A DNA stretch of 64,000 nucleotides from Candidatus Methylomirabilota bacterium (GCA_035764725.1 DASTYT010000051.1:4603-68602), one strand, 5' to 3'. Counted from the stretch's first letter, positions 20,473 to 32,204 are shown. Notes: a model not told the origin generated them from the sequence alone. Made by a program: numbers and translations.

Positions 20473-22719
20473 ATGGCGGCAGACCAGATCAAGCGACTCT
20501 ACGAATCCATGCCCGCCAAGCTGGACCGGGCTCGCACGCGCTTCGGACGCGCGCTCACCCTCGCCGAGAAGATCCTCGTCGCGCACGCCGACGATTTCGA
20601 CAAGCAGGAGTGGAGCCGCGGCAAGGCCCAGCTCCGCCTGCGTGTGGACCGCGTGTCGCTACAGGACGCCACGGGCCAGATGGCGCTGCTCCAGTTCATG
20701 CAGGCGGGGAAGAAGCAGGTGGCGGTGCCGTCCACCGTGCACTGCGACCACCTCATCCGCGCGCAGACCGGGGCGCGCGAGGACATGGAGCGGGCGATCT
20801 CGGAGAACCGCGAGGTGTACGAGTTTCTCCATTCCGCCTCCAGGAAGTACGGGATTGGGTTCTGGAAGCCGGGCGCGGGGATCATCCACCAGGTGGTTCT
20901 GGAGAACTACGCGTTCCCCGGCGGGCTCATGATCGGCGCCGACTCGCACACGCCCAACGCGGGCGGCCTCGGCATGGCCGCGATCGGCGTGGGCGGGGCG
21001 GACTGCGGTGAGGCGATGGCGGGGCTCGCGTGGGAGGTGCTCGATCCCAAGCTCGTGGGCGTGCGGCTCACCGGGAAGTTCTCGGGCTGGACCTCCGCGA
21101 AGGACGTCATCACCTACCTCTGCGGGCTCCTCACCGTGAAGGGCGGCACCAACAAGATCATCGAGTACTTCGGTCCCGGCGCGGAGTCGATCAGCGCCAC
21201 TGGCAAGGGCACCATCTGCAACATGGGCGCGGAGCTCGGCGCCACCACCTCGCTCTTCCACTTCGACGACCGCATGGCCGCCTATCTCCGCGCGACGGAC
21301 CGGGCCGACCAGGCCGCGCTCGCGGAGGCGCACCGGGCGCATCTCGTCGCCGATCCCGAGGTGCTCGCCGACCCGAAGAAGTACTACGACGAGGTCGTCG
21401 AGGTGAACCTCTCCGAGCTCGAGCCTCACATCGTCGGCCCGCACTCGCCCGACCGCGCGCGGCCCGTCAGCAAGCTCGCCGCCGAGGTGAAGAAGGAGGG
21501 CTGGCCCGCCCAGATCAAGGCCGCCCTCATCGGCTCCTGCACCAACTCCTCCTACGAGGACATGCGACGCGCCGCCCACATCGCCACCCAGGCTCTCAAG
21601 GCCGGGCTCAAGGCGAAGACCCCCTTCCTCGTGACGCCGGGGTCGGAGCGCATCTACCAGACCATCAAGCGCGACGGCATCATGGATACCTTCCAGCAGA
21701 TCGGGGGCACCGTGCTCGCCAACGCGTGCGGCCCCTGCATCGGCCAGTGGAAGCGGTCGGACGTGAGCGCGACCGAGACCAACACCATCGTGTCGTCGTT
21801 CAACCGCAACTTCCCCGGGCGCAACGACGGCAGCGCGAGCACGCTGTCGTTCCTCACCAGCCCGGAGATCGTGACCGCGCTGGCCTTCGCGGGGTCGCTC
21901 GAGTTCGATCCCGTCAACGGCACCATCCCCGGTCCCGACGGGCGGGCGTTCCGCTTCACCGCGCCCGAGGGCGAGGAGCTGCCCGCCCGCGGCTTCGCCA
22001 AAGGCGAGGAGGGCTTCGAGGCGCCGGCGGCGAGCGGCGATGCGGTGCAGGTCGTGATCCCACCGGGGAGCGAGCGGCTCCAGCTCCTCCAGCCCTTCCC
22101 GCGGTGGGACGGCAAGGACTTCACCGAGCTCCCGATCCTCGTCAAGACCAAGGGCAAGACGACCACCGACCACATCTCGCCCGCCGGCGCGTGGCTCCGC
22201 TTCCGCGGGCACCTCGACAAGATCAGCGACAACATGTTCCTGGGCGCGGTCAATGCCTTCACCGGCGAAGCGGGGAAGGGCGTGAACCCCCTCACCGGCG
22301 AGGCGGGCAAGACCTTCACCCAGAACGCGCGCGATCTCAAGGCGCGCGGGATCTCCTGGATGGTGATCGGAGACGAGAACTACGGCGAGGGGTCGAGCCG
22401 CGAGCACGCGGCGATGTCGCCCCGCTACCTCGGCGCCAAGGTCGTCATCGTCCGGAGCTTCGCGCGCATCCACGAGACCAATCTCAAGAAGCAGGGCATC
22501 CTGCCCCTGACCTTCAGCGACCCCAAGGACTACGACCTCTTCGACCGGGCCGATCGCGTGAGCGTGCGCGGGCTCGCCGCGCTGATGCCGGGCCAGCCGG
22601 TGGAGGTGGTCATTCACAAGGCGGGTGGCGAGACCGTCACCATCAAGTGCAACCACACCTTGACCGACGAGCAGATCGGCTGGTTCAAGGCAGGCTCGGC
22701 GCTCAACGCGCTCACCTAA
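20473..22719 (+). CDS. Aconitate hydratase (mitochondrial-type, ~750-aa class)
   Basis: 748 aa. Fe-S ligand motifs [11 protein letters not shown] and [10 protein letters not shown]. The length is mAcn-like rather than AcnA/AcnB (~870-890 aa). GGAGG RBS. Confidence 0.85.
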
Positions 22720-22735
22720 CTTCGAGGAGACCTCA

Positions 22736-23998
22736 ATGGCCGGCAAGGTGAAGATTCCCGCGGGCGAGAAAGTCACGATCAGCCACGGCAAGCTGCAGGT
22801 GCCGGATCACCCCATCATCGCGTTCATCGAGGGCGACGGGACGGGGCCGGATATCTGGGCCGCGTCCGTGCGAGTGCTGGACGCCGCCGTCGCCCAGTCC
22901 TACCAGGGCCGGCGGAAGATCGCCTGGACCGAGGTGTATGCGGGTGAGAAGGCGCAGGCCGTGTACGGCAAGGACTGCCCGCCGAACCTTCTGCCCACCG
23001 AGACCCTCGACGTGATCCGCGAGTATCTGGTCGCCATCAAGGGCCCGCTCACCACGCCGGTGGGCGAGGGCTTTCGCTCGCTGAACGTCACCCTTCGCCA
23101 GGAGCTCGATCTCTACGTGTGCCTCCGCCCGGTGCGCTGGTACAAGGGCGTGCCCTCGCCAGTGAAGCATCCTGAGAAGATCGACATGGTGATCTTCCGC
23201 GAGAACACCGAGGACATCTACGCGGGCATCGAGTGGGTGCAGGGGACGCCGGAGGCGCGAAAAGTCATCGATTTTCTCCAGAAGGAGATGGGGGTCACGA
23301 AGATCCGCTTCCCCAACACGTCCTCCATCGGCATCAAGCCCGTCTCCAAGGAAGGCTCGGAGCGCCTGATCCGGGCGTCGATGCGGTACGCCATCGAGAA
23401 CAGCCGTCGCAACGTCACCCTCGTGCACAAGGGAAACATCCAGAAGTTCACCGAGGGGATGTTCATGAAGTGGGGCTACGCGCTCGCCAAGGCGGAGTTC
23501 TCGGACAAGCTCGTGGGCTGGGATGACTGCGGCGGCAAGCCCCCCGCGGGCAAGGTCCTGGTGAAGGACGCCATCACCGACGCCTTCCTCCAGCAGATCC
23601 TGACGAGGCCGGATGAGTTCGACGTGATTCCGTGCTGCAACCTGACCGGTGACCTCATCTCCGACGCTCTCGCGGCGCAGGTGGGCGGCATCGGGATCGC
23701 CCCCGGCGCCAACATCAACTACGAGTCGGGGCACGCCCTCTTCGAGGCCACCCACGGTACCGCGCCGAAGTACGCGGGCCTGGACAAGGTGAATCCCGGT
23801 TCGGTCATCCTGTCGGGCGAGATGATGCTGCGCTACATGGGCTGGACGGAGGCGGCCGACCGCATCGTGGCCGGCCTCGAGAAGACCCTCGATCAGAAGA
23901 CCGTCACCTACGACTTCGCCCGGCTGATGCAGGGGGCGAAGGAGGTCAAGTGCTCGGAGTTCGGCACCGCCATCATCAAGAACATGGAGACCCTCTGA
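22736..23998 (+). CDS. icd: NADP-dependent isocitrate dehydrogenase (prokaryotic homodimeric type)
   Basis: 420 aa. Conserved Icd N-terminus ...[15 protein letters not shown]... GAGGAG RBS. Confidence 0.85.
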
Positions 23999-30899: not shown

Positions 30900-31771
30900 G
30901 CATTCTCGTCGACCGGAACACGAAGGTCCTCGTGCAGGGCATCACCGGCAAGGAAGGCGCCTTCCACGCCGCCCGCTGCAAGGAGTACGGCACCCAGATC
31001 ATGGGGGGCGTGACGCCGGGCAAGGGCGGCACCACCCACGAGGGCTTCGCGGTCTGGAACACGGTGGAGGACGCGGTCAAGGCCACCGGTGCGGACTGCG
31101 CGCTGATCTTCGTCCCGCCTCCCGCCGCCGCGGACGCGATCATGGAGGCGGCGGATGCCGGCATGCCGCTGATCGTGTGCATCACCGAGGGCGTGCCGGT
31201 GGCCGACATGGTGCGCGTGAAGGCGTTCCTCGCCCGGACCTCCAGCCGGCTGATCGGCCCCAATTGCCCGGGGCTCATCACGCCGGGCCAGGCCAAGATC
31301 GGCATCATGCCCGGCCACATCCACAAGGCGGGTCACGTGGGCGTCGTCTCGCGGAGCGGCACGCTGACCTACGAGGTCGTGCACCAGCTGACGCAACGTG
31401 GGCTCGGGCAATCGTCCTGCGTGGGGATCGGGGGCGATCCCGTCAACGGCACCACCTTCATCGACGTGCTGAAGCTCTTCCAGGCCGATCCCGACACCAC
31501 GTCGATCATGATGATCGGCGAGATCGGGGGCACCGCGGAGGAGGAGGCGGCCGCCTTCATCAAGCAGTACGTCACCAAGCCGGTCGTCGGCTTCATCTGC
31601 GGCCAGACCGCACCGCCGGGCCGCCGCATGGGCCACGCGGGCGCGATCATCGCGGGCGGCAAGGGGACCGCCGCCGAGAAGATGAAGGCGATGGAAACCG
31701 CCGGCATCACCACCGTCAAGAGTCCCGCCGACATGGGCGCCACCGTCGCACGCGTGCTCGGCAAGGGCTAG
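30896..31771 (+). CDS. sucD: Succinyl-CoA synthetase alpha subunit
   Basis: 291 aa. CoA-binding N-terminus and phospho-His loop [13 protein letters not shown]. Confidence 0.9.
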
Positions 31772-31778
31772 GGGAGTC

Positions 31779-32204
31779 ATGGCCATCGAGCGGACCCTCA
31801 CCATCATCAAGCCCGACGCGGTCGCGCGGAACGCGATCGGCCAGATCATCGCGCGCTTCGAGGCGGCCGGCCTCAAGGTGCTCGGCGCCAAGTTCGTGCG
31901 CCTGTCGCCCGATCAGGCGGCCGGCTTCTACGCCGTGCACAAGGCGCGGCCGTTCTTCGCGAGCCTCTGCGCGTTCATGACCCAGGGCCCGGTGATGCCC
32001 ATGGTGCTGGAGGGCGAGGGCGCCATCGCCAAGCTGCGCGACATCATGGGCGCCACCGACCCCGCCAAGGCCGCGCCGGGGACGATCCGCCGCGACTTCG
32101 CCTCCTCGATCGAGGCCAACGCCGTGCACGGGTCGGACTCGCCCGAATCCGCGGCCTTCGAGATCGAGTACTTCTTCGGCCCCCACGAGATCCACACGCG
32201 ATAG
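31779..32204 (+). CDS. ndk: Nucleoside diphosphate kinase
   Basis: 141 aa. [12 protein letters not shown] and active-site [17 protein letters not shown]. Confidence 0.9.

Follow-up and report, generated by a model that had tools for sequence, protein, structure and literature searches.

Analysis of a 64,000-nt stretch of DNA from a Candidatus Methylomirabilota bacterium (GCA_035764725.1, DASTYT010000051.1:4603-68602; hereafter the window) revealed eleven consecutive plus-strand genes, all intact, that fill positions 20473–32204 in the order acn-icd-mdh-fumA-fumB-sdhC-sdhA-sdhB-sucC-sucD-ndk. Together they encode six of the eight enzymes of the citric acid (tricarboxylic acid [TCA]) cycle, and nucleoside diphosphate kinase. 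Judging from gene spacing, conserved motifs and synteny, the block is probably a polycistronic, lineage-specific TCA supra-operon of a Rokubacteriales (Methylomirabilota) soil bacterium. A single sigma-70-type promoter (TTGACC-18-TGtTAGCGT, 20350–20379) would start a transcript of about 11.8 kb, with a leader of about 87 nt bearing a conserved stable hairpin, and the message would cross acn through ndk with no gap above 16 nt. At the family level, the products account for six steps of the cycle: aconitase turns citrate into isocitrate, NADP-dependent isocitrate dehydrogenase (IDH) turns isocitrate into 2-oxoglutarate, SucCD makes succinate from succinyl-CoA, type F complex II oxidises succinate to fumarate, the Fe-S fumarase yields malate, and malate dehydrogenase yields oxaloacetate; citrate synthase and the step from 2-oxoglutarate to succinyl-CoA would be encoded elsewhere. 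The most likely role of such a unit would be the co-ordinated, stoichiometric expression of an oxidative cycle in an aerobic or microaerobic heterotroph. If one promoter does drive six TCA enzymes, the block would be among the most complete TCA operons known, and it would show that selection can gather and keep nearly all of a central pathway in a soil bacterium that has a large genome and grows slowly. The enzymes are ordinary, textbook biochemistry is unchanged and no new biological principle is involved; the interest lies in operon evolution and Rokubacterial physiology.

Composition, packing and complex II of the block

Profile matches were scored in bits against the curated NCBIfam or Pfam cut-offs (given as score vs cut-off), and ten of the eleven genes match curated families. 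The acn gene (20473–22719, 748 aa) encodes a mitochondrial-type aconitate hydratase (TIGR01340, 1079 vs 825), with residues 10–747 aligned to profile positions 1–745, a full-length match to this equivalog. It is followed by icd (22736–23998, 420 aa), a homodimeric-type NADP-IDH (NF005425, 703 vs 490), and by mdh (23998–24927, 309 aa), an LDH-like malate dehydrogenase (TIGR01763, 473 vs 352), the ATG of which has one base in common with the icd TGA. An assignment of mdh to L-lactate dehydrogenase was rejected (TIGR01771, 264 vs 304). The class I fumarase alpha subunit is encoded by fumA (24942–25790, 282 aa; NF004885, 380 vs 276), which shows the motifs CQDTG, GGGCEN and ACPP, and the beta subunit by fumB (25787–26359, 190 aa; TIGR00723, 171 vs 145), for which the beta model NF005310 fell 1 bit short (237 vs 238). 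Both subunits of this two-subunit Fe-S fumarase fit fumarase models better than those of tartrate dehydratase, for which the alpha model gave 175 vs 365 with fumA and TtdB gave 84 vs 264 with fumB. The most likely start of fumB is the GTG at 25787, which forms a GTGA overlap with the fumA stop and has AAGGAAG 8 nt upstream.

Complex II is encoded by sdhC (26376–27176, 266 aa), the membrane anchor discussed below, sdhA (27176–28972, 598 aa), the flavoprotein (NF005866, 1039 vs 819), and sdhB (28972–29721, 249 aa), the iron-sulfur subunit (NF009052, 454 vs 256). The succinyl-CoA synthetase beta subunit is encoded by sucC (29730–30899, 389 aa; NF001913, 551 vs 370), the start of which was corrected to the TTG at 29730, giving the canonical N-terminus MKIHEYQ from the sequence; the malate-CoA ligase model was rejected (494 vs 604). 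The alpha subunit gene sucD (30896–31771, 291 aa; NF004230, 462 vs 336) overlaps sucC by ATGA. The last gene, ndk (31779–32204, 141 aa; PF00334, 190 bits), encodes a nucleoside diphosphate kinase. It comes next after sucD in all Rokubacterial loci that extend to this point, as it does in an Acidobacteria locus (L013). As the conserved last gene product, Ndk may rebalance the NTP made by SucCD. The sequence-only reading had described a same-strand TCA run with these gene names, and family models and the structure match below uphold all eleven identities; the reassignments it had feared, of the FumA pair to tartrate dehydratase and of mdh to lactate dehydrogenase, do not hold, the rival models scoring under their cut-offs.

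The genes are tightly packed. Stop/start overlaps occur at five junctions, namely icd/mdh (-1 nt), fumA/fumB (-4), sdhC/sdhA (-1), sdhA/sdhB (-1) and sucC/sucD (-4), and these would fit translational coupling of subunits and neighbours. The other five junctions are small gaps: acn/icd (+16), mdh/fumA (+14), fumB/sdhC (+16), sdhB/sucC (+8) and sucD/ndk (+7). The tight packing reported earlier is thus confirmed, and its list of only two junctions without overlap is corrected to five. With a largest gap of 16 nt, the spacing is operon-like for same-strand genes of one pathway, and the boundaries between modules (mdh/fumA, fumB/sdhC and sdhB/sucC) equal the junctions within enzymes in tightness. 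Shine-Dalgarno-like sequences precede most genes of the block. The G+C content of the window is about 70%, and third-position GC singles out one frame per gene.

The SdhC protein matched no Pfam or NCBIfam model, Sdh_cyt included. Its residues 13–265 (253 residues) align with chain C of PDB 7D6V (E = 6e-76), which is the membrane subunit of Mycobacterium smegmatis (Msm) Sdh1, the prototype of type F complex II. The enzyme thus has a single membrane subunit that is homologous to Msm SdhC and unlike the haem-b anchors. Residues H149 and H234 are the counterparts of Msm His-C155 and His-C240. Together with C108, C126, C200 and H205 they are invariant in the 79 family members aligned, and C203 is kept in 78 of the 79. 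In Msm, His-C155 and His-C240 are the experimentally tested His ligands of a membrane Rieske-type 2Fe-2S cluster (PMC8054011). The N-terminal 155 residues of SdhA match chain A of 7D6V (E = 6e-71). Comparison with mycobacterial Sdh1 (PDB 7D6V/7D6X) revealed the same three-gene sdhCAB arrangement, conservation of the tested His ligands, and SdhA and SdhB proteins that match the same NCBIfam equivalogs (PRK07803 and PRK12386). These features indicate a complex II of type F, Sdh1-like and predicted to be haem-free and to have a Rieske-type 2Fe-2S membrane subunit; the single-anchor succinate dehydrogenase (SDH) noted earlier is in this way upheld and refined. Homologues of SdhC at 73–92% identity include Candidatus Rokubacteria/Rokuibacteriota proteins.

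The N-terminus of SdhA (window 27176–27340) carries the motif HTVMAEGG, with a Glu beside the flavin-linking His, and so does chain A of 7D6V. The SdhA-type chains among the PDB matches have Gln where type F SdhA has Glu. E. coli FrdA has Glu at this position and SdhA-type enzymes have Gln. The Glu appears to be a family trait of type F SdhA, and it does not indicate reductive function, because the mycobacterial enzyme with the same Glu is a succinate:quinone oxidoreductase. Msm Sdh1, the sole characterised type F enzyme, is required for aerobic growth (PMC8054011).

About 70 non-Rokubacterial loci carry the same SDH type, from Actinomycetota, Binatia, a "Deltaproteobacteria" metagenome-assembled genome (MAG), Planctomycetota and Acidobacteria. 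Among them, the Acidobacteria locus L013 has sucCD-ndk on the opposite strand (ndk-sucD-sucC divergent from sdhCAB), two have icd, and the rest have no other TCA homologue within 10 kb. In the Actinomycetota sdhCAB loci fetched, no TCA-cycle neighbour was found save an opposite-strand icd in L015 and L071. Unlike mycobacterial Sdh1, the sdhCAB genes here sit inside the TCA block of another phylum. For the recently solved type F (Rieske-cluster) SDH of Actinomycetota, these loci widen the range to Methylomirabilota as well as to MAGs of Binatia, Acidobacteria and Planctomycetota, and the enzyme is placed unambiguously in a TCA-cycle context.

Cluster head and module exchange among relatives

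Alignment of the acn upstream regions of five loci revealed a head motif, TTGAC(A/C)-17/18-TAG(C/A)(G/A)T, together with an inverted repeat, CGCCTCC...GGAGGCG. In the window, the promoter-like site consists of a -35 element TTGACC (20350–20355), an 18-nt spacer and an extended -10 element TGtTAGCGT (hexamer 20374–20379) on the plus strand, and the pattern TTGACN-N16-18-TAnnnT has a single plus-strand match in the 64-kb window, just 5' of acn. The motif occurs once per locus at the cluster head in 13 related loci and never at internal boundaries; it precedes acn in most relatives but stands before icd in L006 and L016, in which acn does not lie directly upstream. A stock sigma-70/terminator scan of 18800–33800 returned no promoter and no plus-strand terminator-like site, and it missed the head promoter because the -10 element TAGCGT fails its TATAAT rule.

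A conserved hairpin, GUCGCCUCCC...GGGAGGCGAU (20400–20432, plus strand), lies in the predicted leader, about 15 nt 3' of the inferred transcription start and 40 nt 5' of the acn ATG, with a fold of -25.5 kcal/mol. With the covariance model built for it (R1), scores of 30–57 bits come only from acn leaders, in 12 Rokubacterial loci, one of which (L162) was absent from the seed, and the next best match reaches 16.6 bits. All ten distinct variants fold, with stems of 10–14 bp and energies between -18 and -31 kcal/mol; the outer arms do not vary, the sequence of the inner stem does but its pairing is kept, and the arm spacing is 26–30 nt. An Rfam gathering scan of the whole window gave no match, the hairpin included. 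We interpret the hairpin as an element of the leader RNA of the operon; it may serve as a 5' stabiliser of a very long mRNA or as a protein-binding site, both being candidate roles. A palindromic DNA operator for a transcription factor is less likely, because the arm spacing varies, the inner stem covaries, and minus-strand R1 scores are about half those on the plus strand. An IRE-like, aconitase-binding element was also considered; the loop sequences vary and have no CAGUG-type consensus. The promoter and hairpin may offer a handle on regulation in a phylum without a cultured member.

For synteny, 80 genome loci anchored on SdhC were searched by tblastn with the eleven proteins as queries, and a metagenome scan anchored on aconitase added closer relatives. 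The cluster recurs, with module variants, in about 17 Rokubacterial contigs at 65–94% amino-acid identity, and the arrangement is therefore not due to chance. Loci L002–L009 and L016 belong to Rokuibacteriota or Methylomirabilota MAGs. The framework is complete in six contigs (L008, L082, L084, L085, L162 and L163) and partial, bounded by contig ends, in L003, L006, L016, L086 and L164; the Pfam-labelled contigs L162, L163 and L164 show the same order. L082 (89% identity) and L083 share with the window an upstream flank of FeS-NrfD, Mo-oxidoreductase and AhpC/TSA genes, which indicates that the region was vertically inherited. The window version is the most compact among the loci compared. Among about 68 loci of other phyla with the same aconitase type, only two have any other TCA gene. 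As nearly all outgroup loci show no other TCA genes nearby, the earlier view that such clustering is unusual stands; the co-regulation it proposed receives indirect support from the spacing and head motifs, and its reversible cycle is taken up below.

Comparison of the relatives revealed extensive exchange of modules. A monomeric NADP-IDH gene (TIGR00178, 1286 bits, full length) lies between fumA and fumB in L002 (76–1506), L004 (797–3055) and L005 (7114–9345), with junctions of 0–4 nt, and L005 has lost the dimeric icd from its usual place between acn and mdh. It is odd that the genes of a two-subunit fumarase are split by an unrelated 2.2-kb monomeric IDH gene. The fumAB pair is absent in L007 and L009. 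In L083 (14945–18009), frdA/B/C/D genes of the E. coli/M. tuberculosis type occupy the sdhCAB slot between fumB and sucC. The L083 frdA lacks its first approximately 81 residues, and the statement that frdABCD replaces sdhCAB was downgraded on this account: the variant may be defective or misassembled, or else a real in-place replacement. In many relatives, mdh and fumA are separated by a glyoxalase-family gene. A conserved open reading frame (ORF) of about 90–110 aa lies between sucC and sucD in L002 (~6620–6925), L004 (~8170–8490), L006 (~14590–14935) and L164 (5355–5633); it matches no family, is 92 aa as called in L164, and has a lipoprotein-signal-like N-terminus at the DNA level, and the window has the ATGA overlap in its place.

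Further genes are found around acn. In L016, an oxaloacetate decarboxylase beta gene and a PYC_OADA carboxyltransferase gene without biotin carboxyl carrier protein (BCCP) lie between acn and icd. In L009 (105–3791), a fused 1228-aa IOR-family 2-oxoacid:ferredoxin oxidoreductase (NF009589, 1218 bits) is encoded directly 5' of acn on the same strand, and this protein could supply the missing 2-oxoglutarate step there. In most relatives, a second, TfrA-like complex II is encoded 5' of acn (L082, 4492–7597; L007, 1319–5114; L008, 2–3385; L162, 1–1173), which consists of a flavoprotein and an FeS subunit and, in L162, also a 109-aa anchor with a faint Sdh_cyt match; it is absent from the window. 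When the relatives' IOR-family oxidoreductase, monomeric IDH, oxaloacetate decarboxylase subunits and second SdhA were used as tblastn queries against the window, only a cross-match to sdhA was obtained.

Taken across the lineage, the IDH and fumarase slots have been filled, emptied or refilled with non-homologous enzymes, and the complex II slot holds other genes in one contig; the head promoter, the framework and the sucCD-ndk tail persist through these swaps. The cluster would then be kept by selection on function and not on particular genes. The in-place replacement of IDH by an unrelated form represents a natural experiment on operon persistence, pointing to function over gene ancestry, and the possible complex II replacement in one contig would be a second such case.

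Known systems, transcription unit and cycle direction

Several smaller TCA gene units are known. The Bacillus subtilis citZ-icd-mdh operon has icd and mdh adjacent, as here, and in a Bacteroides fragilis operon a mitochondrial-type aconitase gene is co-transcribed with other genes of the oxidative branch; both units have three genes including citrate synthase and are not known to include fumarase, complex II, succinyl-CoA synthetase or ndk. The E. coli sdhCDAB-sucABCD unit, with divergent gltA, encodes three enzymes including 2-oxoglutarate dehydrogenase and is not known to include acn, icd, mdh, fumarase or ndk; its SDH is of type C, with two anchors and haem b. As in E. coli, complex II and succinyl-CoA synthetase genes are joined in the window, whereas the block here unites six enzymes, has no enzyme for the 2-oxoglutarate step and carries an SDH of type F. 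The E. coli genes yield a polycistronic TCA mRNA of about 10,000 nt (PMC6393394). In the Rokubacteria literature searched, we found statements that the TCA cycle is encoded and no described TCA operon. The combination of six enzymes, type F complex II, ndk tail, head promoter with hairpin and slot-wise swaps was not found described in the literature retrieved.

Co-location of genes of the reductive TCA (rTCA) cycle has been described in Nitrospirota, Aquificota and Campylobacterota (PMC13147460). In the Nitrospirota loci L089–L093, the order is aclB-aclA-acn-monomeric IDH-FeS protein-flavoprotein-sucC-sucD, and the ATP-citrate lyase (ACL) of these acl contigs is 82–97% identical to proteins named from Nitrospira/Nitrospirota. 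Like the window, this cluster has collinear acn, IDH, fumarate/succinate enzyme and sucCD genes. Its aconitase is the closest outgroup to that of the block (70–73% identity), its SucD is 67–71% identical, and its monomeric IDH is 67–69% identical to those of L002, L004 and L005. Unlike the window, the Nitrospirota cluster has ACL at its start and a soluble-looking flavoprotein/FeS pair, and the stretches fetched gave neither an mdh or fumAB homologue nor an ndk after sucD. The window lacks a citrate-cleaving enzyme, has a membrane-bound type F complex II, and includes mdh, fumAB and ndk.

Pfam and NCBIfam scans of the sizeable ORFs of the 64-kb window found no citrate synthase, no 2-oxoglutarate dehydrogenase and no KorAB/2-oxoacid:ferredoxin oxidoreductase. 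The two steps that the sequence-only reading had noted as absent from the block are thus also missing from the scanned ORFs of the whole window. The same scans found no ACL and no citryl-CoA synthetase/lyase. The window thus has neither the citrate-cleaving enzyme nor the 2-oxoglutarate:ferredoxin oxidoreductase of an rTCA cluster, and the L009 IOR-family protein has no tblastn match in it. Nothing in the window supports the possibly reversible cycle suggested earlier, as rTCA enzymes are lacking and the type F enzyme is known as an aerobic succinate:quinone oxidoreductase (PMC8054011). The hints of reductive capacity come from relatives only, namely the Nitrospirota rTCA cluster, the frd genes of L083 and the IOR-family oxidoreductase of L009.

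Several points weigh against a single oxidative operon. The single mRNA is deduced from spacing and motifs, promoters of other sigma classes may lie inside coding regions, and no terminator-like site is present 3' of ndk, where the same-strand run goes on for another 9 kb, leaving the 3' end undefined. Relatives show gaps of 100–560 nt and inserted genes (the glyoxalase-family gene at mdh/fumA and the small ORF at sucC/sucD), so that, over the lineage as a whole, the block behaves more like a conserved neighbourhood than like an operon of fixed make-up. Such observations would be expected of an uber-operon, a neighbourhood of independent units (acn-icd-mdh, fumAB, sdhCAB and sucCD-ndk) with their own promoters, in which compactness is incidental: the gaps and extra genes fall at these same module boundaries, whole modules come and go, the promoter scans were limited to sigma-70-like consensus sequences, and a biotin carboxylase gene downstream has its own promoter-like site. 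However, no junction in the window exceeds 16 nt, the module boundaries are as tight as those within enzymes, no plus-strand terminator-like site was seen, and the conserved motif stands only at the head in 13 loci. We consider independent units unlikely. An assembly artefact or a recently transferred cassette is far less probable, and is effectively refuted by synteny. The GC content of the block (0.66–0.69) is slightly under that of the flanks (0.70–0.76), but third-codon-position GC (0.84–0.98) is like that of flanking genes, independent assemblies made in different projects have the arrangement too, with even the upstream flank in common, and the exact SdhC sequence is also present on a separate short ENA forest-soil contig.

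The direction of flux is not fixed by sequence, and the oxygen-labile class of the Fe-S fumarase and the FrdA-like Glu in HTVMAEGG of SdhA also count against a purely oxidative cycle. In a branched cycle, acn-icd would run oxidatively to 2-oxoglutarate, to feed biosynthesis, and mdh-fumAB-sdhCAB-sucCD reductively from oxaloacetate to succinyl-CoA; alternatively, the whole set would work as an rTCA or reverse-oxidative cycle at low oxygen. Beyond the fumarase and the Glu, such use is consistent with the location of the two steps closing the oxidative cycle outside the block and window, with the nearest non-Rokubacterial aconitases lying in Nitrospirota acl clusters, where rTCA co-location is documented (PMC13147460), and with the frd(A')BCD genes in place of sdhCAB in L083, the IOR-family oxidoreductase 5' of acn in L009 and the second TfrA-like complex II of many relatives. 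On the other side, no ACL, citryl-CoA synthetase/lyase or KorAB-type enzyme was found in the window or the Rokubacterial loci examined, the truncated L083 variant may be defective or misassembled, and the sole studied type F enzyme, with the same Glu, is a succinate:quinone oxidoreductase in aerobic growth (PMC8054011). Rokubacteria have moreover been reported to encode the TCA cycle together with aerobic respiration (PMC5712423). Because rTCA enzymes are absent here and in the Rokubacterial loci, Sdh1 is an aerobic succinate:quinone oxidoreductase and aerobic respiration is reported for Rokubacteria, an oxidative, co-expressed cycle is the most likely reading, and branched or reversible use is a minority possibility that we regard as quite unlikely.

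A more speculative and rather doubtful idea is that the Rokubacterial block and the Nitrospirota acl rTCA cluster derive from one ancestral acn-IDH-(fumarate/succinate enzyme)-sucCD cluster, the direction of which was switched by module swaps. ACL would have been lost or gained, a membrane type F SDH would have taken the place of a soluble fumarate reductase, and mdh, fumAB and ndk would have been recruited. Present-day variants (monomeric or dimeric IDH, frdBCD or sdhCAB, fumAB present or absent) would then record a conversion between oxidative and reductive use that is still under way, and the hairpin with its invariant arms would be a lineage-specific RNA switch gating the whole cycle.

Surroundings of the block

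Downstream of ndk, a gene for a bPH_5 (bacterial PH domain) membrane protein (32264–32740, plus strand; PF10882, E = 3e-10) begins after 59 nt, and the gap holds no terminator-like site. L162 and L163 likewise have a member of this family after ndk, and the gene may be a tail gene of the same transcription unit. Further downstream on the plus strand are a biotin carboxylase gene (36644–38146; accC equivalog TIGR00514, 679 vs 627) and the adjoining gene for a 165-aa BCCP (38143–38640), with a promoter-like site for the pair at 36606–36634. By tblastn, the distance from ndk to the biotin carboxylase gene that follows it is 20–70 nt in L002, L004, L007 and L008 and about 1 kb in L006 and L009, and in L164 the order is ndk-ECH-biotin carboxylase-BCCP. 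In the window, the pair that directly follows ndk in several relatives is parted from it by a 4.4-kb same-strand stretch (32264–36586), which encodes the bPH_5 protein, an F420-dependent LLM-class oxidoreductase (TIGR03619), a transporter ABC ATPase, a permease and an NMT1-type binding protein and looks like an insertion into a conserved neighbourhood. As the window has no carboxyltransferase gene next to the pair, an assignment to pyruvate carboxylase was not made. Its linkage to ndk, together with the carboxyltransferase and oxaloacetate decarboxylase beta genes of L016, hints that a pyruvate carboxylase or oxaloacetate decarboxylase may be encoded in split form and be linked with the TCA genes.

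Upstream of the block, a divergent 293-aa ORF (19440–20321, minus strand) combines a signal peptide, MRSLARLVVAVLLVIAVMPLTAAAQE, with a Pro/Ala-rich linker. It matches neither Pfam nor NCBIfam models, is without a homologue in the related loci, and sits where relatives have the second complex II. A same-strand run at 11650–19422 encodes a flavocytochrome c sulfide dehydrogenase-like flavoprotein, a TauE/SafE exporter, a fused 4Fe-4S/NrfD protein, a 942-aa molybdopterin oxidoreductase and an AhpC/TSA redoxin, the last two being syntenic with L082 and L083; this run is possibly a sulfur-compound oxidoreductase system. At the start of the window (1–5778), genes for a PNP_UDP_1 phosphorylase-family protein, an NAD-dependent epimerase and a squalene/phytoene synthase are followed after a gap by LytB/IspH, resembling a hopanoid or isoprenoid biosynthesis neighbourhood. 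Two separate Mo enzymes of the xanthine dehydrogenase/CO dehydrogenase family are encoded at 43443–45701 (minus strand) and 58272–62002 (plus strand), the second with a gene for an FAD-binding subunit upstream.

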